Shown one piece after another: positions 49,735-64,000 of a stretch of 64,000 nt of DNA. This DNA is from a virus, in the IMG/VR virus record IMGVR_UViG_3300010885_039212, positions 31,734 through 95,733 of that record; one strand, written 5' to 3'. Both the position numbers and the translations under genes were made by a program. The stretch's first letter is position 1. Each line of letters begins with the position of its first letter. The notes beneath the pieces are model-generated. The model was not told where the DNA came from. It was given only the letters and a program-made list of their open reading frames with translations, and did not search any database.

Positions 49735-49959
49735 ATGACAAAATTTTTGAAAGTGACTGGAAATGACGGATTGGTCAGAGATTCTGAAACCTTAGCTATC
49801 CTAAATACTAATAGTTCAGAATATGAAAAATATGTCGCCCAAAGAGAATCTCTCAGAAAAACCAAAGATGAAATGGGTCGTCAGGCAGACGAGATAAATA
49901 ATATAAAACAAGATTTGAATGAAATCAAGCAAATGCTACAGGCATTAATAAAAGGATAA
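49735..49959 (+). CDS. small coiled-coil protein conserved downstream of VrlC
   Basis: LVRDSETLAILN...EINNIKQDLNEIKQML. Confidence 0.8.
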   Translation: MTKFLKVTGNDGLVRDSETLAILNTNSSEYEKYVAQRESLRKTKDEMGRQADEINNIKQDLNEIKQMLQALIKG

Positions 49960-49965
49960 GGAAAC

Positions 49966-51327
49966 ATGTCAACTATAACCTTAAGAGCCACTAAAGGATC
50001 GCCACTTACCAATACAGAAGTGGATAATAACTTTAGTAATTTAAATACTGATAAGTTAGAATCTAGTTACGCTGGAGCAATGAATAGCCTTACTGGTGGT
50101 TCATCTATCGTTACAGTTAGTTCTACAACTGGTATTACAACTGGCGCATGGAAAGCCACTGCAATTGGTGCTGCATATGGCGGTACTGGTGTTGCAAATA
50201 ATGCTGCGAGTACTTTAACAATTTCTGGCGCATACGGAACTACGCTGACTGTATCAGGAACTACGTCTCTTACTTTGCCTACTTCTGGCACTATTGCTAC
50301 TTTAGCTGGTACAGAAACTTTTACAAATAAGACATTAACTTTCCCGACAATTGATAATATCAAGTTAGGTTATTCCACAACTGCAACTGCAGCAGGAACA
50401 ACTATTTTATCTTCTACAAGTAACAGTCAACAGTTTTTTACTGGATCTACCACTCAACAGGTAAATTTACCAGATACTTCTACTCTGTCAACTGGTGTAT
50501 CTTATACGATCGTTAATCAAAGTTCTGGCGTAGTTACTGTTAAAACCACATCTGGTACAAATTTAGTTTTTGCAGTTCCTGCATCAACTCAGGCTACATT
50601 TTATTGTATCAGTACTTCTAATAATAATGCTGCATCATGGTATTATAATGCTGGAGCAACTTCTGGTTCAACAAGTATTATTACTTTAGGTACTATTACT
50701 ACTGGTACTTGGAATGGTACTGCGATCAGTGTTGGTTATGGCGGTACTGGAGCATCATCTTTAACTGCTTATGCGGTTCTTTGTGGAGGAACTACTTCAA
50801 CTGGTGCAGTTCAAGCAGTCGCTTCTGTGGGTACAGCTGGTTATGTTTTAACATCTAATGGTGCTGGCGCACTTCCTACTTTTCAATCTGCAGCAGGTGG
50901 TGTTACTGTTACTGATGACACATCAACTAATAGCAACGCAAGATATCCACTCTTTACATCAGCTACTTCTGGCTCTGTAAGTGGCACAAACGTATCAACT
51001 ACAAAGTTATATTTTAACCCAAGTACTGGTACTTTAAACGCAACAAACTTTAACTCTCTGTCTGATGAAACGCTAAAGACAAATATTACACCTATCGTAA
51101 ATGCAACAGATATCGTTCGTGCATTGAATGGTGTTGAATTTGATTGGACAGATACTGGCGATAAATCGTCTGGTGTTATTGCTCAGCAATTAGAACCAAT
51201 TCTACCGCATCTAGTTAATACTAACGAAGAAGGTATTAAGTCTGTTAACTATCAAGGTATTACTGCGTATTTAATTGAAGCGTTCAAAGAGATCGATCAA
51301 AGATTACAAAACTTAGAAGCAAAATAA
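49966..51327 (+). CDS. tail fibre with C-terminal peptidase S74 intramolecular chaperone
   Basis: KGSPLTNTEVDNNF anchor; T/S/G-rich shaft; SDETLKTNI...GVIAQ...VNY...LIEAFKE. Confidence 0.88.
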   Translation: MSTITLRATKGSPLTNTEVDNNFSNLNTDKLESSYAGAMNSLTGGSSIVTVSSTTGITTGAWKATAIGAAYGGTGVANNAASTLTISGAYGTTLTVSGTTSLTLPTSGTIATLAGTETFTNKTLTFPTIDNIKLGYSTTATAAGTTILSSTSNSQQFFTGSTTQQVNLPDTSTLSTGVSYTIVNQSSGVVTVKTTSGTNLVFAVPASTQATFYCISTSNNNAASWYYNAGATSGSTSIITLGTITTGTWNGTAISVGYGGTGASSLTAYAVLCGGTTSTGAVQAVASVGTAGYVLTSNGAGALPTFQSAAGGVTVTDDTSTNSNARYPLFTSATSGSVSGTNVSTTKLYFNPSTGTLNATNFNSLSDETLKTNITPIVNATDIVRALNGVEFDWTDTGDKSSGVIAQQLEPILPHLVNTNEEGIKSVNYQGITAYLIEAFKEIDQRLQNLEAK

Positions 51328-51328
51328 A

Positions 51329-52441
51329 ATGGCTTTCCAAATAAATGGTACAAATGTTATTGCTGATACAACAGCAGCAACAATAGATAACATTAATATT
51401 AATGTTGCGACCAGAGATGTTCAGGCAGGAACAACAGCATATGGTACCAGTGTGTATCAAGGTACTATAAGTGGATATTCTCATGGTGGGGCTGGTCCTA
51501 CAAGTCCAAGTCCAGTAGGATCTATAAAAATTGAGAAATTTTCGTTTCCGTCAAATGCTAATGCTACTTCTGTTGGATCCTTAACCAAAGGAAGATATAC
51601 TTCTTCAGGTGTAGGTTCTACAGTTAGTGGATATACTATGGCTGGATATACTGCAGATATGGATGGCCGAGCTTCAGTAAATACAACTTATGAGAAGTTT
51701 TCTTTTGCATCTGATGGTAATGGTGTTGGTGTTGGTAGATTGACAGTTGGTAGATGGAGACCATTTGGTGGTAGCGCATCTTCAACATATGGTTATACTG
51801 GTGGTGGTATTAATCCAGATCTTGGACCAAATAGTTCTACAGTAAGTAACTATGAGAAATTTCCATTTTCGTCAGATGAAAATATGGCAATTGTAAATAC
51901 TTTGTTGTGGTCGGCAAGTGGATTAAATATGGGTGCCACGTCTTCAGTGAGTGGATACATAATTGGCGATCAGCCTGCTTTTCCTGGTGGTGCAACTGGT
52001 ATTATTCAAAAATTCCCATTTGCAACAGACTCAACAACAACTTTAGTTACATCTTCAATGGTAGTATCAAGAAGAACTTACGCACAAGGTAATGGAGTTT
52101 CTTCAACAAATTTTGGATATGTTTCAGGTACCAGTGCACCATCACAGCCTGCAACATATGGTGTTTCTAATCAAATGAAACTAATAGAAAAATTTGCATT
52201 CGCATCAGATGGTGCTTCTACTGCAGTTGGTCAATTAACATTGGCCAGATATGGTTCCAGTGGACAATCTTCAACAATTAATGGTTACTGTTCTGGAGGT
52301 TATGGTGGAACTCCAGTAGCAGCAGTATCACTTGTTATTGATAATTGGCCATTCTCATCAGATTCAAACGCAACTTCTGTTGGACAGTTAGTTACTGGCA
52401 GAGAAGAACAAGCTGGATCACAAGCAAGATCACCGAGTTAA
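51329..52441 (+). CDS. Kelch-like beta-propeller protein A1
   Basis: About 50-aa repeats GY..GG...IEKFPF.SD...VG.L. Confidence 0.75.
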   Translation: MAFQINGTNVIADTTAATIDNININVATRDVQAGTTAYGTSVYQGTISGYSHGGAGPTSPSPVGSIKIEKFSFPSNANATSVGSLTKGRYTSSGVGSTVSGYTMAGYTADMDGRASVNTTYEKFSFASDGNGVGVGRLTVGRWRPFGGSASSTYGYTGGGINPDLGPNSSTVSNYEKFPFSSDENMAIVNTLLWSASGLNMGATSSVSGYIIGDQPAFPGGATGIIQKFPFATDSTTTLVTSSMVVSRRTYAQGNGVSSTNFGYVSGTSAPSQPATYGVSNQMKLIEKFAFASDGASTAVGQLTLARYGSSGQSSTINGYCSGGYGGTPVAAVSLVIDNWPFSSDSNATSVGQLVTGREEQAGSQARSPS

Positions 52442-52445
52442 AAAA

Positions 52446-53528
52446 ATGACATATCAAATATCAGGTACAACAGTTATTAATGATTCGTCTGTTACTAGTT
52501 TTCCCACATCAATTAGTACAACGGGATCTATAGCGTTTAGTTCAAATGATACGTTCCAAGGAACTGTGGCAGGATATACTTCTGCTGGTTGGAGTCCATC
52601 ACTGTATCCCACCAACCCTAATGGATATTTCGCTTCTATTCAAAGAACTTCATTTACATCAGATGGTAATTCCATTGTAACTGGAGCTTTATCTCGAGCT
52701 ATACGAGATGGCGGTGGATGTTCTTCTGATAGTAATGGTTACCATGCTAATGGATTTAATTCAAATCCTGGAGCTGGACAGATAGAAAAATTCCCATTCG
52801 CAAGTAATGCCAATTCAAATGTCGTTGGACAAATGAATGGTTGGTCTCATGGTGTTTCTTCTTCTTCAAGTATTCCATATGGATATGGATATATAATGGG
52901 TGGCGCTGGTTCAGGACAGCCAAACCCACAGCCATATCCAGTTACACCAGATGGATATTCAAATAAGATATCAAGATTTCCATTCGCAATAGAAACAAAT
53001 TCCACACTTATGGTTGGAACTTTATCTGTATCAAAAGGTTTTGGAAGTACTGGACATTCTTCACCTCTAGCTGGTTGGGCGGTAGGTGGATGGACTCCAG
53101 CTGGCGTAGGTCTTAGTAATATTGAAAAATATACATTTGCAACTGACTCTAGTGCAACTTCAGTTGGACAATTACCAGCTGCAAAGACTGGTTCTAGTGG
53201 TACATCATCTTCTACATATGGGTATGTAGCAGGTGGTTCAATTAACCAAAGTGGACCAGGAACAGTTGCTACCATTTATAAATGGCCATTTACATCTCCT
53301 GGAAATGCAACTTCAGTTGGACAATTAACAGTTGGAAGATATAGTGGAGTAATTGGGACTTCATCAACTGCTTCTGGATATAATATGGGTGGTCAACCAA
53401 GTGCTGCAGATGGTGGAGCTACAGCAGCGGTCATTGATAAATTCCCATTCGCATCAGATTCAAACGCAACTAGTGTTGGTAGTCTCGCTTGGAGACTACA
53501 CAATAATTACTCTAGTCAACAGGATTAA
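52446..53528 (+). CDS. Kelch-like beta-propeller protein A2
   Basis: Same repeat. Confidence 0.75.
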   Translation: MTYQISGTTVINDSSVTSFPTSISTTGSIAFSSNDTFQGTVAGYTSAGWSPSLYPTNPNGYFASIQRTSFTSDGNSIVTGALSRAIRDGGGCSSDSNGYHANGFNSNPGAGQIEKFPFASNANSNVVGQMNGWSHGVSSSSSIPYGYGYIMGGAGSGQPNPQPYPVTPDGYSNKISRFPFAIETNSTLMVGTLSVSKGFGSTGHSSPLAGWAVGGWTPAGVGLSNIEKYTFATDSSATSVGQLPAAKTGSSGTSSSTYGYVAGGSINQSGPGTVATIYKWPFTSPGNATSVGQLTVGRYSGVIGTSSTASGYNMGGQPSAADGGATAAVIDKFPFASDSNATSVGSLAWRLHNNYSSQQD

Positions 53529-53531
53529 AAA

Positions 53532-54623
53532 ATGGCATTCCAAATAAATGGTACAACAATTTTAGATGCTAATGCTGGCGGTTCTAGTACAATATCAAAT
53601 GTTCCATCACTTAATGCCACTGGCGATGCTGCGTATTTTGAAGCAACTCCATCATCTCCGTATTATGGAACTGTGGCAGGATTTGTTTCTGCTGGTTATG
53701 GAGCACCTCCATCACCACCGCCAACTGGATATCAAAGGGTAATTCAAAGATTCCCATTTGCAACTGATACGGATTCAACATATATTGGTGATGGTTTGGT
53801 TCAAGGATATTCAGTAACAGGAAATTCATCAACTACCCATGGATATAGACAAGGTATGGGTTTTCCTACATCAATTAATCAACCAGATGGTACTAATTGG
53901 AGTTCAAACCAAGAAAAATTTACATTTTCTTCTACAACATATGCTTCAAGCGCAGGTAGTCTTGTAAATGCGGTTATGAGTGGTATCGGAGTATCAGCAC
54001 CAGACACTGGATATATTATCGGTGGTATTAATGGTTCTGCTCCAAATGGTGGTAGTATAAGAAATTATATACAAAAATTCTCGTTTAGATCAGATGCAAA
54101 TGCATCTTTAAATAGTGGAATAGTTACTTTAGGAGGTAGAGCAAATAGTGGTGGACATGCTTCTACTATTAAAGGATATGTTTCTGCTGGTAGTTCGTAT
54201 TCAGGTAACCCTGGAGTATCACCTCTTGGAATAACTGCAGCAATTGAAAGTTTTCCATTCTCAACTGATTCAAATACAACTAGTGTTGGTCAAGTTACTG
54301 TTGGTAGAACAAATGCAGTGGGTCAATCTTCACCTATATCTGGATATACTTCGGGTGGTTATTTACCATCACCTGTTACGCACTATACTACAATTGATAA
54401 ATTTCCATTTGCATCCAATACCAATTCAACCTCTGTTGGTTCATTAACTCAGGCTAGAACTGATGGTTGCGGTGCAGGACATTCTTCAGTTAATTATGGA
54501 TATACCTCTGGTGGTTATATGCAAACCAGAATTGATAAATTTAGTTTTTCCACTGATTCCAATGCAACTACAGTTGGTTCTTTGGCTAAACAAACATGGC
54601 TCGCTGCTGGGCATCAAGATTAA
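53532..54623 (+). CDS. Kelch-like beta-propeller protein A3
   Basis: Same repeat. Confidence 0.75.
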   Translation: MAFQINGTTILDANAGGSSTISNVPSLNATGDAAYFEATPSSPYYGTVAGFVSAGYGAPPSPPPTGYQRVIQRFPFATDTDSTYIGDGLVQGYSVTGNSSTTHGYRQGMGFPTSINQPDGTNWSSNQEKFTFSSTTYASSAGSLVNAVMSGIGVSAPDTGYIIGGINGSAPNGGSIRNYIQKFSFRSDANASLNSGIVTLGGRANSGGHASTIKGYVSAGSSYSGNPGVSPLGITAAIESFPFSTDSNTTSVGQVTVGRTNAVGQSSPISGYTSGGYLPSPVTHYTTIDKFPFASNTNSTSVGSLTQARTDGCGAGHSSVNYGYTSGGYMQTRIDKFSFSTDSNATTVGSLAKQTWLAAGHQD

Positions 54624-54650
54624 AGAGTATCTTAATCTAGATTAAAAACT

Positions 54651-54672
54651 TTCTGGAGGTTCGCCTCCAGAA
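54651..54672 (+). terminator. UUCG hairpin without U-tract (terminator or processing site)
   Basis: TTCTGGAGG-TTCG-CCTCCAGAA. Confidence 0.55.
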
Positions 54673-54712
54673 GTCATATATATAATATGATGAAATAAAC
54701 TATGGAGTTATA

Positions 54713-55552
54713 ATGAACCGCTTGCATTTTTGTGGTGGTCTTCCAAGATCTGGAAGTACCATTTTGATGAATATTTTACAACAGAATCCAAAAATCTTCA
54801 CTACTGGGACTTGTGCCCTGCCTGATCTAATTTCAGATCACATTTTAATCAAATCTAGATACCGAGAAATGTTCCAAGCCATGTCTGTACATGATGCGGA
54901 TAAGGCTATGTATGGATTAATTCATGGTGCAACAAAAGGTTGGTTTGAGGGATTAACAAATAAAGAAGTTGTAATTTCTAAAAATAGAAATTGGTCTTCT
55001 ATTTTTCATCTATATAAAGATTCAAAATATATTGTAATGGTGCGTGATATTCGTGATATAGTTGAAAGTTTTGAGAAGGTCAATCATAAAACACTGGCAC
55101 TTCATTCTTTCGGTGATACTGGAACTACTTCTCCTGCAATGCACGAGTTAGAGAAATATCATTTTTATTTTCAACAAGGAAATGCACTACAGGCTTCCAT
55201 TAATTTTGAAATTCCAAGGTTAATGGAAAGATATATGTCTGGTGGACAAAATAATATAAAATTTGTTCGTTATGAAGATTTTACACAAGATCCAGTTTAT
55301 ATTTTAAAAAAGATATATGAATTTTTAGGGTTGGACTATTTTGAACATGATTTAAATAATATTCAACAACAAACACTGTTTGAGCATGATCATGCTTATT
55401 TTAGAGAAAGAACGGATCATGTTATTGATCCAGTTTTTAAATATTATAAACCTCCAGTTAGAACTTTACCAGATCGTTTTCATGAGAAAACTTTAAAAGA
55501 GTATGACTGGTTTTACAAAGGATTTTATCCAGATGTTATTCCAACCAATTGA
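54713..55552 (+). CDS. PAPS-dependent sulfotransferase
   Basis: 5'-PSB GLPRSGST, 3'-PB VRDIRDIVES, VRYEDF, IYEFLG. Confidence 0.9.
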   Translation: MNRLHFCGGLPRSGSTILMNILQQNPKIFTTGTCALPDLISDHILIKSRYREMFQAMSVHDADKAMYGLIHGATKGWFEGLTNKEVVISKNRNWSSIFHLYKDSKYIVMVRDIRDIVESFEKVNHKTLALHSFGDTGTTSPAMHELEKYHFYFQQGNALQASINFEIPRLMERYMSGGQNNIKFVRYEDFTQDPVYILKKIYEFLGLDYFEHDLNNIQQQTLFEHDHAYFRERTDHVIDPVFKYYKPPVRTLPDRFHEKTLKEYDWFYKGFYPDVIPTN

Positions 55553-56105
55553 AATAAATGGACTTAATACATTTATCGTTCAGAGTAAAGTATCTGATGA
55601 AGCTGTAGAACAAGCGATTAATACATTTAATGTATTAATACCTCATGCTGGACTAACTGGCAATGGTGTTAATCCAGAGAAAAAAGATTCTTTAGATGTT
55701 AGTGTAGTTCCAAATACTGTTCTTATTGAACGTGAAATTCGTGAGATAGTTGGAAATTATTGTGAATACTATTCTTTAGATAAATTTGTAGCTCCTTTAG
55801 ATATTACTGAACACATTAATATACAAAAATATCCACTAAAGGGTGCATACCATTCTATACATGCTGATCGAGGATGGTCGCCATTAGATATGTATAGAGA
55901 ATTAGTTTTTATGACATATTTAAATACGATACATAGTGGTGGTGAAACAGAATTTATGTTTTACAAACTAAAAATTAAACCAGAAAAAGGTTTAACATTA
56001 GTATGGCCAGCTGGATGGACGCATGCACATCGTGGGTTACCTGCTCCAACTGCTGAAAAAATAATCCTTACAGGATGGTTTAGTCCATCAAGAAATTATG
56101 ATTAA
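55533..56105 (+). CDS. 2OG-Fe(II) oxygenase
   Basis: HAD, MTYLN, GGETEF, WPAGWTHAHRG, KIILTGW. Confidence 0.92.
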   Translation: MLFQPIEINGLNTFIVQSKVSDEAVEQAINTFNVLIPHAGLTGNGVNPEKKDSLDVSVVPNTVLIEREIREIVGNYCEYYSLDKFVAPLDITEHINIQKYPLKGAYHSIHADRGWSPLDMYRELVFMTYLNTIHSGGETEFMFYKLKIKPEKGLTLVWPAGWTHAHRGLPAPTAEKIILTGWFSPSRNYD

Positions 56106-56664
56106 AGAATTACCACACCATAAATTATTTCCCACTCCTATATGGGGTTATGTTTTATCAAACTCACATTATCAAGCAATTGACTACGTTAATAAAATAA
56201 GAGAGATACAACAAACAGAACCTTCTGTTAAAAAAAGTAATTTTAGTGGATATCAAAGTCGAGATAATTTGCATGAAGAACCGATTTTTCAAGAATTGGT
56301 TAAATATGAAATTCTTCCACTTGCTCAAGATATTATAAATACATATTCAAATGTTAAAGTAAAAATGGATCAAATGTGGGCAAACATTAACGATAAGTAT
56401 AGTTGCAATCAATCTCATATACATAGTGGACTACTATCTGGAGTATTCTACTTACAGACTCCAGAAAATTGTGGACAAATTGTTTTCTGTAATCCTGCAG
56501 TGAGAAGTAATTATCACATTATAAAAGAACCAGATTATGGAGTACCTCCTCAAAGATTGGCATGTTTGTTTTTTCCTAGTTGGTTAGAACATTATGTTGA
56601 ACCAAATTGCAGTGATGAGAGTAGAATTAGTATTAGTTTTAATATAGGAGAAATTTATGAATAA
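56098..56664 (+). CDS. 2OG-Fe(II) oxygenase (TIGR02466-like)
   Basis: LFPTPI, WANIN, HIH, SGVFYL, FPSWLEHYV, RISISFN. Confidence 0.92.
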   Translation: MIKELPHHKLFPTPIWGYVLSNSHYQAIDYVNKIREIQQTEPSVKKSNFSGYQSRDNLHEEPIFQELVKYEILPLAQDIINTYSNVKVKMDQMWANINDKYSCNQSHIHSGLLSGVFYLQTPENCGQIVFCNPAVRSNYHIIKEPDYGVPPQRLACLFFPSWLEHYVEPNCSDESRISISFNIGEIYE

Positions 56665-57931
56665 ATCAGCAGAATTTTTTGATCAAAATGGTTATGTGGT
56701 AGTTACAGATGTTCTACCAAAACAAACATGCGAAGAGTTAACTCAGCACATGTTTAGTCTTTTAAATGATGGTAAGCTGACAAAAGATGATCAGTGTCCA
56801 ATTTCAGATGCAATTTATGGAGATCCAGTGTTTGATGATCTCTTGCAAAAATTTGCAGAACCAGTTGGTAATCAAGTAGGTCGTAAACTGTTACCAACTT
56901 ATACTTACGCAAGAATTTATCGTCCAGGAGAAGTTTTAAAGAAACATAAAGATCGTCCAGCATGTGAGATTAGTTGCACATTAACTCTTGGTTATAATGG
57001 TAAATCTGTTTGGCCAATTTTCTTTGATGAAAATAAAGCAATACCAGTTATGTTAGAGCCAGGAGAAATGGCTGTGTATAAAGGATGTGATATTGCACAT
57101 TGGAGAACAGAATTTAAAGGCGATTGGCATGTGCAAGTATTTTTTCATTATGTAGATGCTAATGGACCATATAAAGATGAGTATAAAGATCGTCGCCCAG
57201 ATTTTGGAATTGACAAAAAAACTTTGACTACAAATGCAGGTCAAGTTCAAACTGATGTTACTGAACAAGAAAAAATGTTACAACAAGTTAAATATAATAA
57301 GCCAGTATTTGGTGGTGTAATTATTTCTAGTCAAGATGATTCATTTCCTGGATATACAAGTATAGATTCTTCTAATTATCGAGGATTGATGTTTACCAAA
57401 GAAGAGTGTACTAAGATTACTAATTTAGTTAAAGATAATTATCCTGCTCCTGCATCTATTGGTGGAAATCAAAATAATAGTAAAGTTGCAGAATCGATAA
57501 GATCAGCTGATATTTACATTTTAGAAAATGATGATGAAAATAGATGGCTTTTTGATAAAGTTTCAACTATTGTAACTCTAGCGAATAAACTACATTTTGA
57601 TTATGATATTAGTGGTATTATCCATGGTATTCAGTTAATCCATTATAAGTCTAATACTGAAGTTGCTGGACATTATGACTGGCATATTGACTCTGGTCCA
57701 GGAATTTCTGCTACCAGAAAAATATCATTTACAGCACAAATTAGTCCTCCAGAAGATTATGAGGGATGTGAACTTATCCTAAATAATAATGGGCAGATAG
57801 TTACGGCAACAAAAGAACAAGGTTCTGTGCATTTATTTCCAAGTTATATGTCACACAGAGTTACACCAGTAACTAAAGGCGAACGATTTGCTTTAGTAAT
57901 TTGGATCCATGGATCGAGGAGATTTAGATAA
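56657..57931 (+). CDS. tandem two-domain 2OG-Fe(II) oxygenase
   Basis: Domain 1: PTYTYARIY..HKDRPACE..HWR..QVFFHY; domain 2: YDWHID..RKIS..FPSY..HRVTPV..GERFALVIW. Confidence 0.92.
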   Translation: MNKSAEFFDQNGYVVVTDVLPKQTCEELTQHMFSLLNDGKLTKDDQCPISDAIYGDPVFDDLLQKFAEPVGNQVGRKLLPTYTYARIYRPGEVLKKHKDRPACEISCTLTLGYNGKSVWPIFFDENKAIPVMLEPGEMAVYKGCDIAHWRTEFKGDWHVQVFFHYVDANGPYKDEYKDRRPDFGIDKKTLTTNAGQVQTDVTEQEKMLQQVKYNKPVFGGVIISSQDDSFPGYTSIDSSNYRGLMFTKEECTKITNLVKDNYPAPASIGGNQNNSKVAESIRSADIYILENDDENRWLFDKVSTIVTLANKLHFDYDISGIIHGIQLIHYKSNTEVAGHYDWHIDSGPGISATRKISFTAQISPPEDYEGCELILNNNGQIVTATKEQGSVHLFPSYMSHRVTPVTKGERFALVIWIHGSRRFR

Positions 57932-57950
57932 AATGAATGAGGAAAAAATT

Positions 57951-58898
57951 ATGAATGAAAAAGAAACAACTTCAGAAACAGTTAAGCAAGAAATTGCTGT
58001 ATTTGAGGACATCCGTAGAGATTTAGCGATACAAACAAAGCTAAATATACCTATGAGCTACGTGTTTGGGCGTGGGGTAATTGGTAATAAAGAAAGTTTT
58101 GGTGGTAATTCTTTAACAGTTAATACGGCTAAAGTCGATGGGGCTTTGGCTAATGTTGAAGAATTACAGAATATTTGGAACCATAGTCATACTCAATGGA
58201 CATGGAGACATTTAAACTTATCTTATCATGCTCCTCTAAAGAATATGCGACAAATTGCTGCAGAAATGTCAGCAAAAAAAGCTGCGTTAAACGAAGCTAA
58301 ATGGAGACATGTTGATTCAGAATTAAAGATTCGTAAGATTGAAGAAGAACTTCAAAAGGGACTTGATAGTGGTACTTTAGATTATTGGAGAGAAGTTGAA
58401 CTCAAAATTAAACTTGCTAAAATGAAAGAAGGTCTTGCAGATGGTACTTCTTATATTGAAGGAGCCATGAAAGACGTTCTAACTCTCAATGAACTATACG
58501 AGCAGTTGAAAGAAAAAGTTTCTAGTTTTAGCGAAGCTGATGTTGAGAAAGAAGAAACTAAATCTCATCTTCAAAGATCTCTTGTTCAATGTATTCGTGA
58601 TGTACGAGAACGTGGTTCAATATCAAAAGGTGAACAAGAATATATAGAACAGATCGGTGTGAATCCAATGAAACTGCAAGGTTTGCTACAAAAATATGTA
58701 GCTGCAGAAGCAAAAGAAGACAGCTGGGATGTTACGGGATTATATGAATTTGTAAATAAACTTACAGATGAATTAACTGATGTATATAAAGTAGATCATG
58801 CTAGAATGAAACTGCAGGGATTTAAACCTGAAGTATTTGATAATTATTCTTATACAAATAAGGTAGCGTTGTTACCTAAACAAGAAAAGGAAGACTAA
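57951..58898 (+). CDS. coiled-coil hypothetical protein
   Basis: Long helical heptads; SD GAGGA; alternative start 57933. Confidence 0.75.
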   Translation: MNEKETTSETVKQEIAVFEDIRRDLAIQTKLNIPMSYVFGRGVIGNKESFGGNSLTVNTAKVDGALANVEELQNIWNHSHTQWTWRHLNLSYHAPLKNMRQIAAEMSAKKAALNEAKWRHVDSELKIRKIEEELQKGLDSGTLDYWREVELKIKLAKMKEGLADGTSYIEGAMKDVLTLNELYEQLKEKVSSFSEADVEKEETKSHLQRSLVQCIRDVRERGSISKGEQEYIEQIGVNPMKLQGLLQKYVAAEAKEDSWDVTGLYEFVNKLTDELTDVYKVDHARMKLQGFKPEVFDNYSYTNKVALLPKQEKED

Positions 58899-58899
58899 A

Positions 58900-59244
58900 A
58901 TGGCAGTAATAGAATACATGATGGTACGAGATAGACATACTAGACAAGTACCAGAATTTGTTGGAGATCGTGGTCACTGGTATAATTCGGTGGATCATAC
59001 TTTTATCGGTTGGGTAGATGATAATCGTGACTACTATGTTCCAGATACTATTGTTTATCTTACTAAAGAGCAATTCATCGCCAGACAACTTGCTGCTCAT
59101 GCAGTTGTTCCATGGACTAAGTTTAAAGATGAAAAAGAAAACTTTAATCCAGGGGCTGAGAAAATTGATTTGACAATTGAAGAAGTCACATCAATTTCTG
59201 GCGCATGGTATGATGGATTTGTTGCAGCAAATCAACCTGCCTAA
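58900..59244 (+). CDS. hypothetical protein
   Basis: SD AAGGA, 114 aa. Confidence 0.75.
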   Translation: MAVIEYMMVRDRHTRQVPEFVGDRGHWYNSVDHTFIGWVDDNRDYYVPDTIVYLTKEQFIARQLAAHAVVPWTKFKDEKENFNPGAEKIDLTIEEVTSISGAWYDGFVAANQPA

Positions 59245-59250
59245 ATAATT

Positions 59251-59379
59251 ATGATAGAAATTACCGCACAAAGAATTCTAGAGCTAGAACTTCCAGAATT
59301 GATTAGTTTATTGAGAAATTTACAAATAGAAGACTTGGATGCATTTAAAAAAGTACGAGAATTACTAGAAGATCTATAA
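59251..59379 (+). CDS. 42-aa Leu/Glu-rich protein
   Basis: Follows CTAAATA; TAATG overlap with next gene; not in ORF track. Confidence 0.6.
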   Translation: MIEITAQRILELELPELISLLRNLQIEDLDAFKKVRELLEDL

Positions 59380-60395
59380 TGACTATCAGAGTTAAAAAAG
59401 ACCGCATAGATTTCGACAATGGTTTTTCCATTGTCGAAACAGCAGAGGGATTTTCCTTTAATGGAGTTATCAATGCTAAAACTGCTCAAAGAAGTGGTTT
59501 TCAAGGTGTAATTGCGGGTTGGACTGCTGGTGGATATGTATATCCAGGCACAAGTACGCAAATTGAAAAAATTCCATTTGCAACAACTTTCACTCACTTT
59601 GGTGTTGGAAATTTAACAACACCTAGTATCTATGGACAGAATGGACACTCATCTGGAACTGATGGATATGCTAGTGGGGGTTTTACAACTAACATTGAAA
59701 AATTTCCATTTGCATCTGGTTCGGTTACAGCAGTTATATATGGAACACTTGGATCAAGTGGTGGTCTTGGTTTTGCAGTAAGTTCAGATACTGATGGTTA
59801 CAGCCATATGGGACATCCACCATTTCCATCTACTGGTAAGGGTGGTAAAGCAGTTTATAAATTTCCATTTGCAGTTGCTGGTAATATATCTAATCAAGTT
59901 TTTCAGTTAAACACAGGAAGACAACTTCCAGCATCTCAACAAAATACTATATATGGATTTGCCAGTGGCGGAAGAACAGATCCTCCTGGTAGTCCTACTC
60001 CAAGTTATGTTGGAACATCAACTATTGAAAAATTCCAATTTGGAACAGACTATACTAATTATACAGTTGGTGCTTTAACTCAGGCTCGCATTGCTGCTAG
60101 TGGTATTTCTGGACCAGTATATGCATATACTGCTGGTGGGTATAATCCATCTGCAGTTGCAACGATTGATAAATTTCCAATGGTTACTAATAATAATGCA
60201 ATAAGTGTCGGATCATTAAGCGTTACGAAATATTCTGGCTTTGGTAATAGTAGCACAACAGCTGGTTGGGTTCCTGGTGGTAATACGCCTTCACTAAATA
60301 CAGTTGAAACTTTTCCATTTGCCACTGATACAAATGCAACTAATGTTGGTTCTTTGTATACAAGCAGATATAGTGGTGCACCAGCTCAGGTATAA
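59379..60395 (+). CDS. Kelch-like beta-propeller protein B1
   Basis: IEKFPF repeats. Confidence 0.75.
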   Translation: MTIRVKKDRIDFDNGFSIVETAEGFSFNGVINAKTAQRSGFQGVIAGWTAGGYVYPGTSTQIEKIPFATTFTHFGVGNLTTPSIYGQNGHSSGTDGYASGGFTTNIEKFPFASGSVTAVIYGTLGSSGGLGFAVSSDTDGYSHMGHPPFPSTGKGGKAVYKFPFAVAGNISNQVFQLNTGRQLPASQQNTIYGFASGGRTDPPGSPTPSYVGTSTIEKFQFGTDYTNYTVGALTQARIAASGISGPVYAYTAGGYNPSAVATIDKFPMVTNNNAISVGSLSVTKYSGFGNSSTTAGWVPGGNTPSLNTVETFPFATDTNATNVGSLYTSRYSGAPAQV

Positions 60396-60398
60396 CAA

Positions 60399-61508
60399 AT
60401 GACTATTAAAATAAATTCAGACAGTATACAGTTTCCAGGTGGAACCAGAATAGTTGCAACTCCAACTGGTATTGCTATAACTGGTAATCAAACAGAAGGT
60501 GCTTCTGGGTTTTTAACTGCAAAAGCATTTTCATATAAATCTCCAAATATTGGAGAAAACTACGGATATACTTCTGGTGGTGCTGGACCATCTGCTGGTG
60601 CAAATACTTTAACTGCAATTCAAAAATTTGCATTTGCATCAACAGTAAGTTCAACCCCTGTTGGTTCTTTAGCAATTGGTACTAACAATGTTCGTTGGGG
60701 ATCATCTTCTCCAAGTAATGGATATAATGTGGGTGGTCAAAATAGTCAGGCTGGACCAGCAGCACCATTTGCTCAGGCACCGCTTGGGATGGCATTGACC
60801 ACAATTCAAAAATTCCCATTTACATCAGATTCAAATGCAACTAATATTGGACAATTAACATATGGTTCATATGGTACTTCTAATGGGCACTCTACCATTG
60901 AAAATGGATTTGGTGGCGGTGGAATTTATTATACAACCAGAGTTGCTAGATGGTCTCATGTAAATGATGGAAATAGTCAAGTGCACACTAATTTAACTAC
61001 TGGTGTTATGTATGGGAGTTCGTTATCATCTGCATTTGCTGGTTACCAGGCTGGTGGTGGTAGTTCTCCAGCTTCACGAAACAGAACTGCAATTGAAAAA
61101 TTCCCATTTGCCATTCAAAATACTATATCTACTATAGGAAACCTTACACAAGGGCGAGAATCAATAGCTGGTGTTAATGCTCAACAAAATGGTTATTTCT
61201 GGGGTGGACAAGCAACTGCAACTTCAGCTGTTACAACAATTGCGGAAAAGTTTAATTGGAGTAATGAAAACGTAGTTGCTATTCCTAACATGTATACTCC
61301 ATATACGTCGCCAAATGGAGGTACTACTGCGGCAGGCGCAAAGACACCATCATCAAGTGCAACTACAGGATTTCTTGCTGGAGGAAATAATACTGTTGGA
61401 GGTGCTATGGTTGCAGTTGATGCTTTTTCTTTTGCTTCAGATGGATCTTCTGTCCTAGTTGGAACATTGGGAACTGCAGCATCGCAATCATCACCAAGTT
61501 TTTACTAA
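60399..61508 (+). CDS. Kelch-like beta-propeller protein B2
   Basis: IQKFPF repeats. Confidence 0.75.
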   Translation: MTIKINSDSIQFPGGTRIVATPTGIAITGNQTEGASGFLTAKAFSYKSPNIGENYGYTSGGAGPSAGANTLTAIQKFAFASTVSSTPVGSLAIGTNNVRWGSSSPSNGYNVGGQNSQAGPAAPFAQAPLGMALTTIQKFPFTSDSNATNIGQLTYGSYGTSNGHSTIENGFGGGGIYYTTRVARWSHVNDGNSQVHTNLTTGVMYGSSLSSAFAGYQAGGGSSPASRNRTAIEKFPFAIQNTISTIGNLTQGRESIAGVNAQQNGYFWGGQATATSAVTTIAEKFNWSNENVVAIPNMYTPYTSPNGGTTAAGAKTPSSSATTGFLAGGNNTVGGAMVAVDAFSFASDGSSVLVGTLGTAASQSSPSFY

Positions 61509-61520
61509 AAGAAGAATAAA

Positions 61521-62516
61521 ATGGCAATCAAACTTTTTGCAGATCATATTGAAATTGGAAATTTTATCTTAACAGAAGGTAACCAAGGAATTCAATTTGA
61601 TGGTGTTATTAATGCGGATAGAATCAATAGTAATCCATATCAAGGTGTAAGTGCTGGATATACTGTTGGACAATATGGTCCACCGCAAATTGGACAATTT
61701 CCATTCTCGACTTACGTAACTCAAAAAAATCCACAGACTCCTTCTTTTCCACCATATTCTAGAAGTACAGCTGGTGGTGCATCTAATACACATGGTTATC
61801 AATTTGGACACTATCAAGGTGGTTCACCACCATTAATGTCCAGTATTGAAAAATTTCCATTTGCAGATGTAACAGCTCCTGCTGTTGCAACTGGTGCGTT
61901 AAAAAATGCTGCTGGTGGAATTTCTGTTTATTTTAAGAGTTCAGAAAACGCATATATTGATGATTCAACCACTTGTAAAATTCCATGGGCAACAGATCAA
62001 CCATCTGTCCCACTACCATTATTTCCTCAAGGTGGTACTAATCTTGGCGGTGGTCATGGAGTTTCGTCTTCAAGTCATGGATATGGTACAGGGCAATATT
62101 CTGCTAGTTCAGTACTAAGAAAATTCCCATTCGCATCAGAAAATGGAATGCAAGATCTTGGTCAGTTAATGTATTATCCAGGATTTAATAGAAAAAATTG
62201 TTCTTCACCTACCAATGGATATGCATTAAGTGGACAGACCTATGGACCAGCAGGTAATGCAGTATTAGCGTATTCTATGGAAAGATTTCCTTTTGCACAA
62301 GATACAGCAGGTAAAGCAGTTTTAATTGGATCACTTGGTCCAAGCACTGGTGTTTGGGGAATCACCCATTCTTCTCGAACTAATGGCCATTGGACTGAAG
62401 GTACTGTTGGAGTAAATACATTTCCATTTGCCACTGATGCTTCTGCCACGCAACAACAAGCAGCACCAGCACTTGCATTTGGTACATTTTTAGCATCGTC
62501 TCATGTTCATGTCTAA
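61521..62516 (+). CDS. Kelch-like beta-propeller protein B3
   Basis: Divergent FPFA repeats. Confidence 0.75.
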   Translation: MAIKLFADHIEIGNFILTEGNQGIQFDGVINADRINSNPYQGVSAGYTVGQYGPPQIGQFPFSTYVTQKNPQTPSFPPYSRSTAGGASNTHGYQFGHYQGGSPPLMSSIEKFPFADVTAPAVATGALKNAAGGISVYFKSSENAYIDDSTTCKIPWATDQPSVPLPLFPQGGTNLGGGHGVSSSSHGYGTGQYSASSVLRKFPFASENGMQDLGQLMYYPGFNRKNCSSPTNGYALSGQTYGPAGNAVLAYSMERFPFAQDTAGKAVLIGSLGPSTGVWGITHSSRTNGHWTEGTVGVNTFPFATDASATQQQAAPALAFGTFLASSHVHV

Positions 62517-62554
62517 TATATAGAATACTATTTTTTAATTATGGAGAAAATATT

Positions 62555-63415
62555 ATGGCACAGCGAATTTTAGTAATGGGATTACCAGGATCTGGTAAAA
62601 CTTATTTTACACAACATTTAAAAACCTATTTGGAAACTCATGGGGATCTTTATAAAATTAATCCTCAACGAATAATGAATTATGAGGGTATTCCAGATAG
62701 GAATTTCCTTCGGGTAAATGTTGACTGGTTCAACGCTGATGAGATAAGAAAGAAATATAATGATTGGGATTTCTCTAAAGAAGGAAGAATTCGTCAATCA
62801 TTACGTATGTTTCAGTTTGCATTTGAATGTACTGGTGACTATGTAATTTGTGATTTTGTTGCACCACTTGTTGAGATGCGCAACAACTTCAAAGCGGATT
62901 GGGTTATCTGGATGGATACCATTGATGCTGGTCGTTATGATGATACAAACAAAGCATTTACTCCACCAGATGTTTATGATTTTAGAATCACTGAGCAAAA
63001 CGCAGAGAAATGGGCAGAGTTTGTTGGTTCGCATATTCTAGAAAATCGTCGTAGACCTAAGTTTGACTGGCAAAAAGAAACAGTTCAAATGCTTGGTAGA
63101 TGGCAACCTTGGCATGAAGGTCATAGAAAATTGTTTGAAAGATCTATTGCTAAAACTGGTCAGGTTGTAATTCAGATTAGAGACTGTCAGGGGTGGCAAG
63201 GTTCCAATCCTTTTGCAATCGAGCAAGTAAAAAATTACATCAAACGAGATCTTGATCCTTTATTTCAAGGACAATATGAAATTCAAGTTGTTCCAAATAT
63301 TGTAAATATTACATATGGACGTGATGTTGGATATAAAATTGAACAAGAATCTTTTGATAAATCTGTAACAGATATTTCAGCCACCAAGATCCGTAAGGAA
63401 ATGGGAATTGAGTGA
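62555..63415 (+). CDS. APS-kinase (CysC)-like domain fused to HIGH-type nucleotidyltransferase
   Basis: GLPGSGKT, NADEIR, DWDFSKEGRIRQ, DFVAP; C-domain GRWQPWHEGH...YGRDVGY...ISATKIR. Confidence 0.85.
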   Translation: MAQRILVMGLPGSGKTYFTQHLKTYLETHGDLYKINPQRIMNYEGIPDRNFLRVNVDWFNADEIRKKYNDWDFSKEGRIRQSLRMFQFAFECTGDYVICDFVAPLVEMRNNFKADWVIWMDTIDAGRYDDTNKAFTPPDVYDFRITEQNAEKWAEFVGSHILENRRRPKFDWQKETVQMLGRWQPWHEGHRKLFERSIAKTGQVVIQIRDCQGWQGSNPFAIEQVKNYIKRDLDPLFQGQYEIQVVPNIVNITYGRDVGYKIEQESFDKSVTDISATKIRKEMGIE

Positions 63416-63614
63416 TACTTCAGTTCGCAGTCTAGCAAAGGCTGTTAGCTGGCGAGTTACAGGAACTATTGATACGTTTCTTATTAGTTGGCTAATAACT
63501 GGGCAGGTGTTACTTGCTTCAGGTATTGCTCTTACTGAAATACTAACAAAAGTCTTTTTATTTTGGGCTCATGAAAGAGTTTGGAATAAAATAAATTGGG
63601 GTAAATCCCAATAA
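63408..63614 (+). CDS. DUF2061 small membrane protein
   Basis: RSLAKAVSWR.TGTIDT...HERVWNKINWG. Confidence 0.88.
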   Translation: MSDTSVRSLAKAVSWRVTGTIDTFLISWLITGQVLLASGIALTEILTKVFLFWAHERVWNKINWGKSQ

Positions 63615-63624
63615 ATATTTTTGT

Positions 63625-63650
63625 AAAACCCCACCTTGTGTGGGGTTTTT
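63625..63650 (+). terminator. intrinsic terminator
   Basis: AAAACCCCAC-cttgt-GTGGGGTTTTT. Confidence 0.88.
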
Positions 63651-63700
63651 GCATTTCTTGCACTCTGAAAAACGATAAATAAAGATATAGGAGATAAGCT

Positions 63701-64000
63701 GTGGCATCGATAGCAAATTTATACATAGATCAAGGTTCGACTTACAGTAATACTATCACTGTAGCGTCAGCTACAGGCACATCTTTAAATTTAACTGGAT
63801 ATACCGTTGCTTCTCAGATAAGAAAGTCTTATGGTTCTTCCACTTATTATACATTTACCGCAAGTGTTTTTGACGCAGCAACAGGTAAGGTTAGATTACA
63901 ACTAACATCGACACAAACTTCTGCGATTCCAGCTGGTAGATATCTTTATGATATAGAAATCACAAATACATCTACAACTGCAAAAACAAGAATCTTGGAA
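63701..64000 (+). CDS. conserved T4-like virion protein (5' partial, runs off window)
   Basis: Late promoter, SD AGGAG, GTG start; ANLYIDQGST...LTGYTVASQIRKSY...AGRYLYDIEI. Confidence 0.8.
   Translation, partial: MASIANLYIDQGSTYSNTITVASATGTSLNLTGYTVASQIRKSYGSSTYYTFTASVFDAATGKVRLQLTSTQTSAIPAGRYLYDIEITNTSTTAKTRILE

Follow-up and report, generated by a model that had tools for sequence, protein, structure and literature searches.

Directly downstream of a tail-fibre gene of an uncultured T4-type phage lies a gene set that, judged from gene content across related loci, is built of two separable modules and not of a single obligate pathway. The DNA analysed here (the window, 64,000 nucleotides) makes up the final 64 kb of a 95.7-kb IMG/VR contig (IMGVR_UViG_3300010885_039212) that is about 60% complete. 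One module consists of Kelch-like beta-propeller proteins (P1 to P6), a double 2-oxoglutarate (2OG)-Fe(II) oxygenase (OX3) and the proteins U329 and U114; the other consists of a sulfotransferase (ST), a kinase/nucleotidyltransferase fusion (KIN) and a small DUF2061 protein. Both appear to lie in one late transcription unit, and the propeller proteins, or glycans carried on them, would be the likeliest targets of sulfation, a reading to which we give a probability of about 40%. Of this reading, the identities of the genes, their folds, their motifs and their co-occurrence are observed, and we infer the late timing, the virion location, the synthesis of 3'-phosphoadenosine 5'-phosphosulfate (PAPS) and every substrate.

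The division into modules comes from a comparison with about 380 related loci, the mapped ones comprising 122 reached via the propellers or ST, 80 via KIN and 77 via a profile of diverse STs. Module 1 occurs with or without ST. In the ST-anchored sample, OX3 was present in 11 of 11 propeller-positive loci against 1 of 66 propeller-negative ones. Four near-complete genomes carry 7-13 propeller genes and exactly one U329 each, and the one propeller-negative record that was searched had no U329. Since the set is kept intact in at least eight gene orders, module 1 seems to stay together while its order changes. Module 2 is widespread in aquatic phages and mostly found without Kelch-like propellers, which are present in just 3 of the 80 KIN loci. 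ST lies within 10 kb of KIN in 42/80 KIN-anchored loci, and in 20/29 of those with at least 5 kb on both sides; KIN was found in 31 of the 77 ST-anchored loci. The first-pass annotation had proposed that one pathway spans the whole locus and that its parts should co-occur. Of this, the linkage of ST and KIN holds well beyond the locus and DUF2061 is tied to sulfate activation (see below), but the unity of the pathway gives way to two modules: it is OX3, U329 and U114 that track the propellers, whereas the ST-KIN cassette mostly occurs without them.

An association of ST with propeller genes is nevertheless seen when propellers of a second type are counted. Among the KIN loci, ST and a propeller gene (mostly RCC1, Pfam 1.7e-72) were both present in 31, ST alone in 11, a propeller alone in 5 and neither in 33 (odds ratio 18.6, Fisher p = 3.5e-8, relatedness between loci ignored), and in 24 of the 31 loci holding both the two genes are at most 100 bp apart. 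Within the ST clade of the window, propellers of the Kelch-like (P) family occur in 44/53 loci and RCC1 propellers in 4 more, and in most gene orders of this clade ST stands directly upstream of the 2OG oxygenase genes. The pairing recurs in five of seven GenBank loci, namely in S-SKS1, S-SRM01 and three single-cell marine viruses. In S-SKS1, a cultured Synechococcus phage (Llyrvirus), P-family open reading frames (ORFs) flank the sulfotransferase; in S-SRM01, likewise cultured (Kyanoviridae), the row runs tail fibre, three RCC1 propellers, 2OG oxygenase, sulfotransferase, glycosyltransferase and epimerase. A literature search found no proteomics of S-SRM01.

Paralogous to one another at 25-40% identity, the six propeller genes of the window (51329-54623 and 59379-62516) share a repeat of ~45 residues. 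The fold was modelled for P2 only and is assigned to the other five by paralogy. AlphaFold, run on 43 family members, modelled P2 (predicted local distance difference test score, pLDDT, 86.7; predicted template-modelling score, pTM, 0.85) as a six-bladed Kelch propeller, and Foldseek matched it to KLHL12 (2e-19, target-normalised TM-score 0.90) and more generally to KLHL12, KLHL17 and KEAP1 (2e-19 to 1e-15, target-normalised TM-scores 0.87-0.92), which bears out the beta-propeller call made from the letters alone. With the Kelch domains of KLHL12 and KEAP1 these proteins share the six-bladed fold and the repeat logic of GG, hydrophobic, turn and Arg; unlike them, P2, at ~15% identity, has no BTB domain, and the phage proteins have short phage-type N-terminal adaptors. 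None of the six matched a Pfam family at E <= 0.01, Kelch models included, and sub-threshold Pfam Kelch matches appeared only in large propeller homologues of other phages. The family members are metagenomic proteins without names. Neither megablast with the locus nor tblastn with P2 and U329 retrieved anything from GenBank phages; a profile hidden Markov model (HMM) later detected the P family in S-SKS1. In that genome (NC_020851), a propeller-family open frame (L214:4828-6192, 2e-77) occupies an unannotated stretch between SWZG_00287 and SWZG_00286.

Several features favour a place for the propellers in the virion. The homologues P0218 and P0156 carry, in place of a short N-terminus, the Mtd_N fibre adaptor (4e-15 and 2e-8), which is the adaptor of the tropism determinant in the Bordetella phage, and one further homologue has a TIG domain; the N-termini of the window propellers themselves are short and differ from these. 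Among the fold matches are jumbo-phage Kelch-like 'virion structural proteins'. The island also takes the position of the T4 collar/whisker genes, after a short-fibre-like gene, and in relatives directly precedes the neck proteins and terminase. Because of the Mtd_N homologues, the jumbo-phage fold matches and this location, the propellers most likely belong to the virion, as receptor-binding proteins or distal pieces of the fibre whose N-terminal adaptors can be exchanged, in line with the receptor-binding role first proposed for them; a literature search turned up no proteomic evidence on this point. A conserved D-x-N-A-T was considered as an N-glycosylation sequon and rejected, being the normal Kelch B-C turn. 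Likewise, a search for a collagen-like or Pro-rich substrate of a prolyl 4-hydroxylase (P4H) found none here.

That ST is a PAPS-dependent sulfotransferase, as first annotated, is confirmed by its score against Sulfotransfer_3 (69.5 bits, cut-off 27; 6.3e-19) and by the PAPS-binding motifs GLPRSGST and R...SF, which are invariant across 85 relatives. Against the PDB it gave weak matches only, to a polyketide-synthase sulfotransferase domain (4.5e-4) and to TPST2 (~2e-3), and these do not decide the class of acceptor. A search with one distant sulfotransferase (L123) recovered itself alone. Some KIN-anchored loci contain long sulfotransferases of 567-591 residues (L171:3272-4975, L178:4677-6452), the extra C-terminal region of which (~370 residues) has no Pfam match and resembles GT9/OGT-type glycosyltransferases by eye.

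Four 2OG oxygenase domains had been counted in three genes, and this count can be kept. OX1, OX2 and the C-terminal half of OX3 score above the Pfam 2OG thresholds, and the fourth, the N-terminal half of OX3, is recognised from its HxD...H...R residues (H97, D99, H148 and R150, invariant in 30 sequences) and a sub-threshold match to PhyH. Both halves of OX3 retain their catalytic residues. By profile, the C-terminal half is closest to the PKHD hydroxylase 3dkq (2e-11), PiuC (~1e-9) and prolyl 4-hydroxylases (~2e-5). OX1 and OX2 are accessory in relatives, OX1 amounting to 12 ORFs across the related loci. Searches of Pfam, PHROGs, NCBIfam, PDB profiles and the ESM Atlas with U329 and U114 were uninformative, and kinship of U114 with a 130-residue protein found between ST and KIN in relatives was ruled out. 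Conceivably, the oxygenases and ST could act on a small metabolite or on the DNA of the phage instead of on a protein or glycan. Natural-product clusters do pair these activities, as with CyrJ, CyrN and CyrI of the cylindrospermopsin cluster (sulfotransferase, APS kinase, where APS is adenosine 5'-phosphosulfate, and a P4H-like 2OG hydroxylase), and T-even phages hypermodify their own DNA. We nevertheless regard this as very unlikely: the island has no polyketide synthase, non-ribosomal peptide synthetase or base-modifying enzyme, its 2OG domains are of the Oxy_3, Oxy_5 and PhyH-like types and not of the AlkB or TET/JBP types, and it sits inside the structural gene block.

The assignment of KIN is less straightforward. 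Against Pfam APS_kinase (PF01583) it scores 21.6 bits, marginally above the cut-off of 21.1, over model positions 33-93 of 152; a relative without its 23-residue insertion reaches 38.5 bits, but scores 41.5 bits against KTI12. The structural model (pLDDT 70 overall, higher in the kinase domain) shows an APS-kinase fold with a Walker A loop, and APS kinases and PAPS synthases make up most of the best 50 Foldseek matches of the N-terminal domain, beginning at 1.6e-6. The C-terminal domain of ~110 residues contains GRWQPWHEGH and ISATKIR. Its best sequence match is to NadM/archaeal nicotinamide mononucleotide adenylyltransferase (NMNAT), a similarity that covers only the first 50-70 residues (GRxQPxHxGH); profile comparison with the PDB gave 2qjt (1.6e-6, 57 residues covered), and the NCBIfam NMNAT models score 23-27 bits against cut-offs of 127-418, with no full-length match. 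Of the APS-kinase/nucleotidyltransferase fusion first described here, the two-domain plan therefore stands, with an APS-type kinase fold and an NMNAT-like C terminus, while the family score for the kinase remains marginal.

These data raise the question of whether KIN instead works in nucleotide or cofactor metabolism, for example as a nicotinamide riboside kinase joined to an NMN adenylyltransferase in NAD salvage, and neighbours ST by position only, with ST drawing on host PAPS. The resemblance of the C-terminal domain to NMNAT and the marginal APS_kinase score, together with the similar KTI12 score of the relative, would fit such a role. KIN is also far more conserved and widespread than ST, with at least 8,000 homologues, many at 80-89% identity. 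In cultured Xylella and Stenotrophomonas phages the homologues lie among early or nucleotide-metabolism genes, beside a NADAR-domain gene and near MazG and Dam genes, and other phages place KIN by dCMP deaminase, clamp loader, PTPS, KDO8P synthase or TauD. We consider this alternative quite unlikely, however, given that the fold matches are nearly all APS kinases, with no NadR or Nrk kinase in the top 50, that ST lies within 10 kb in over half of the KIN-anchored loci, and that KIN-type kinases are tied both to DUF2061 and, in SAR11, to a sulfotransferase. As to DUF2061, ~12 proteins of ~200 residues fuse a KIN-type kinase to this domain (one being 51% identical to the kinase domain of KIN), and one 518-residue protein is a CysN-like GTPase fused to it. 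These fusions link DUF2061 to sulfate activation and support a role for it in the supply of PAPS; a literature search found no report of a DUF2061 function.

The domains of KIN also occur apart. In two complete or near-complete relatives the kinase and nucleotidyltransferase are separate ORFs (G002:C1:78193-78952 and G003:C1:158657-159389), and a third relative (G001) has the kinase domain only. Homologues 62-77% identical to KIN were found in contigs, mostly short, binned into Bacteroidetes, Caulobacter and Haliscomenobacter metagenome-assembled genomes (MAGs; L299-L306). One of these (L301) has the phage order ST, RCC1, RCC1, KIN, and as a group they look like phage contigs binned into bacterial MAGs.

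The locus had been called self-contained, which would hold only on one condition. No match to Sat (PF01747) or to a CysD-type protein (PF01507) was found in the 95.7-kb contig, itself about 60% complete, nor in five large relatives save for one sub-threshold PF01507 match, so that self-sufficiency hinges on whether the small domain of KIN is an ATP sulfurylase of an unrecognised kind. Prokaryote genomes, which were scanned as well, are of some help here. Kinase and nucleotidyltransferase were found as adjacent, overlapping ORFs in 13 Pelagibacteraceae genomes (L309-L321), six of which were tested further for gene content. These six have no Sat-type ATP sulfurylase and weak PAPS_reduct-family matches only, and the KIN-type kinase is their sole APS_kinase match. 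Each has one strong Sulfotransfer_3 gene, a ~575-residue ORF located elsewhere in the genome. Two bacteria with a kinase-only homologue gave strong CysD/CysH-type matches. As SAR11 combines kinase, nucleotidyltransferase and sulfotransferase without Sat, its gene content, as indirect evidence drawn from few lineages, agrees with KIN as the source of PAPS and with the small domain possibly supplying APS.

Following this reasoning, module 2 might work as follows. The small nucleotidyltransferase domain of KIN would possibly form APS from ATP and sulfate, the kinase domain would convert APS to PAPS, DUF2061 would assist this supply in some way, and ST would pass the sulfate from PAPS to an acceptor. 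In the reading that we favour, the acceptor would be the propeller proteins, either directly (on Tyr, Ser/Thr or a newly made hydroxyl) or via a glycan on them. In module 1, OX3 may hydroxylate propeller side chains, and OX3, U329 and U114 may act on the propellers or help to assemble them. A more specific version, in which KIN is a miniature PAPS synthase feeding ST, and ST O-sulfates the virion Kelch propellers at positions hydroxylated by OX3, is in our judgement unlikely; it is kept alive because the window lacks a glycosyltransferase gene and ST usually stands directly 5' of the 2OG genes. A literature search found no report of sulfated phage virions.

Besides the NMNAT match of KIN and the early-gene setting of its homologues in cultured phages, several observations weigh against propellers as the targets of a KIN-fed sulfation. 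In the broad sample, no propeller of either family, P or RCC1, lies within 7 kb in 63 of 77 ST loci, so the sulfation cassette is not dedicated to propellers. ST and KIN are themselves not inseparable: G004 has ST without KIN, and G003 has the split KIN but lacks a Sulfotransfer_3 gene. The counts given above are not independent events, as the loci are related. The D-x-N-A-T turn, like the Tyr and the Pro of every blade, corresponds to the ordinary structural Kelch motif, so that no modification is required to account for these residues. Finally, a sugar acceptor is favoured by the gene content of related islands, where GT2, GT25, FkbM- and CmcI-type methyltransferases, UDP-galactopyranose mutase, a carbamoyltransferase and a sugar epimerase are encoded.

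The last point can be taken further. The cassette may sulfate a glycan outside the virion, such as host lipopolysaccharide, capsule, S-layer or a soluble saccharide formed in infection, the propellers being ordinary fibre or receptor-binding proteins and the locus a hypervariable cargo island. In relatives, the genes that accompany the cassette (GT25, GT2, O-methyltransferases, UDP-Galf mutase, carbamoyltransferase and sugar nucleotidyltransferase/cupin) make up a set as used in polysaccharide or Nod-factor tailoring, and the rarity of propellers near the cassette, the glycosyltransferase-like C-terminal domain of the long ST forms and the location of the sulfotransferase of cyanophage S-SCSM1 among replication genes would all be understandable. 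On the other hand, two unrelated propeller families, Kelch-like and RCC1, adjoin ST in three or more phage lineages, the genes seem to be transcribed together in a late structural unit, and the window has no glycosyltransferase at all. Moreover, it can be reasoned, if not from data, that a lytic T4-like phage would profit little from altering the surface of a cell soon to be lysed. We regard a non-virion glycan as the main and a strong rival to the favoured reading, if somewhat less probable. Related islands with the cassette often include RCC1 propellers together with sugar-tailoring enzymes.

The favoured reading, with propellers or their glycans as targets, draws on the placement of both modules within the structural genes. 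Upstream in the contig the genes are T4-type (gp32, baseplate hub and baseplate wedge). Together with the wedge protein, which is ~42% identical to those of Methylophilales phage Melnitz and of Pelagibacter phages Mosig and HTVC008M, they identify the source, as far as these genes can tell, as a pelagimyophage-like T4-type myovirus from an aquatic habitat. Every gene named in the first-pass annotation was recovered exactly where it had been placed, all on the plus strand and tightly packed, with intergenic gaps of -50 to +89 nt (Table 1). P1 begins 1 nt past the stop codon of the tail-fibre gene, and the closing terminator was confirmed 11 nt beyond the end first given for the locus. A NATAAATA motif is present 72 nt 5' of the fibre gene and a second one after the terminator, with only one between them, inside OX2. 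As these motifs flank the unit and only one is internal, the genes from fibre to terminator, all co-oriented, would form one late transcript. The form GATAAATA is comparable to the T4 late promoter TATAAATA. The exact TATAAATA was dropped as an enriched signal (2 matches against 9 expected), and only the looser NATAAATA was found ahead of structural genes.

Some further features of the region deserve mention. The hairpin at 54651-54672 lies in the sole sizeable gap of the unit, between the first three propeller genes and the enzyme genes, and might serve there in attenuation or in the processing or stability of the RNA. The 42-codon ORF, missed earlier, encodes an acidic, helical-looking predicted peptide without a Pfam match. 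Beyond the terminator (region 63675-64000), GATAAATA stands 26 nt 5' of the next ORF, which runs from 63701 to the window end and is rich in Ser, Thr and Tyr. In the closest relative (L124), the counterpart of this ORF is followed by two further S74-type fibre genes, and the island therefore has fibre genes at both flanks, here as in L124.

Table 1. Features of the locus, in window coordinates
Feature	Position	Strand	Basis or remark
Late-promoter-like motif GATAAATA	49894..49901	+	72 nt 5' of tail-fibre gene
Tail-fibre protein, C-terminal S74 intramolecular chaperone	49966..51327	+	Pfam Peptidase_S74 1.2e-13; tail-fibre PHROGs
P1, Kelch-like propeller paralogue, N-terminus MAFQINGT	51329..52441	+	paralogy; local P-family HMM
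P2, six-bladed Kelch-like propeller	52446..53528	+	AlphaFold pLDDT 86.7; Foldseek against KLHL12 2e-19
P3, Kelch-like propeller paralogue	53532..54623	+	paralogy
9-bp GC-rich hairpin in the 89-nt gap between P3 and ST	54651..54672	+	without a T tail on the + strand
ST, sulfotransferase, Sulfotransfer_3	54713..55552	+	GLPRSGST and R...SF motifs kept
OX1, 2OG-Fe(II) oxygenase (Oxy_3, P4H-like)	55503..56105	+	Pfam 2.3e-9
OX2, 2OG-Fe(II) oxygenase (Oxy_5 / TIGR02466)	56098..56664	+	family models
OX3, double 2OG oxygenase	56657..57931	+	N half PhyH-like by motif; C half PKHD/prolyl-4-hydroxylase-like
U329, helical protein, single-copy core partner of the propeller family	57909..58898	+	comparative loci
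U114, small protein travelling with OX3 and U329	58900..59244	+	comparative loci
42-codon ORF	59251..59379	+	between U114 and P4; TAA stop overlaps P4 ATG (TAATG)
P4, Kelch-like propeller paralogue, second N-terminal type	59379..60395	+	paralogy
P5, Kelch-like propeller paralogue	60399..61508	+	paralogy
P6, Kelch-like propeller paralogue, most divergent of the six	61521..62516	+	paralogy
KIN, APS-kinase-like P-loop kinase (~1-165) and small HxGH/ISxT nucleotidyltransferase (~175-286)	62555..63415	+	fold, profiles
DUF2061 small membrane protein	63408..63614	+	Pfam 3.7e-21; start overlaps KIN by 8 nt
Intrinsic terminator	63625..63649	+	10-bp stem, 5-nt loop, T-rich tail

Sulfotransferases with their own sulfate-activation genes are known from bacteria: RaxST with RaxP/RaxQ in the tyrosine sulfation of RaxX in Xanthomonas, and NodH with NodP/NodQ in the sulfation of Nod factors. 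The present locus resembles these in that a PAPS-dependent sulfotransferase, here of the Sulfotransfer_3 family and weakly matching TPST1/2, is encoded together with dedicated activation genes. Unlike them, the activation genes specify a 286-residue kinase/mini-nucleotidyltransferase fusion and DUF2061 instead of CysD/CysN/CysC, and the system is phage-encoded, inside the structural gene block. KIN is also reminiscent of the metazoan PAPS synthases PAPSS1/2 (PDB 1x6v, 1xjq), in which an APS-kinase fold is followed by a domain of the nucleotidyltransferase superfamily with HxxH, and PAPSS1 is among its fold matches. In contrast to these, the second domain of KIN has ~110 residues against ~390 and is NMNAT-like rather than PF01747, and the activity of KIN is a prediction.

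For the hydroxylation side, PBCV-1 encodes a prolyl 4-hydroxylase, and mimivirus L230 is a lysyl hydroxylase/glycosyltransferase acting on collagen-like fibre proteins. As in these viruses, P4H-like 2OG oxygenases are encoded here beside candidate structural substrates; the differences are that these candidates are Kelch propellers without collagen-like repeats, and that OX3 has two domains and comes with U329 and U114. Mycobacteriophages glycosylate their virions and keep the glycosyltransferases beside structural genes. Modification enzymes lie inside the structural module here as well, and relatives of the island do carry glycosyltransferases, unlike the window itself.

Sulfotransferase and cysC-like genes of phages are commonly classed among the sulfur auxiliary metabolic genes. 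In this light, the finding that ST, KIN and DUF2061 form a conserved cassette is of interest, as the cassette appears to be built for a specific sulfation late in infection, beside fibre genes. The KIN fusion also bears on how SAR11, which has no known sulfate activation, could make PAPS. Likewise, the propellers with OX3, U329 and U114 constitute a widespread, uncharacterised partnership between a protein family and a hydroxylase. Since S-SKS1 and S-SRM01 are cultured and carry versions of the arrangement, the idea can be tested in culture. If the virion is the target, sulfate would be a new means for phages to tune charge, adsorption and stability in sea or lake water. Should the hydroxylate-then-sulfate version prove true, it would represent the first sulfated phage particle and a new protein modification, and the ~110-residue domain of KIN would be a new kind of ATP sulfurylase.

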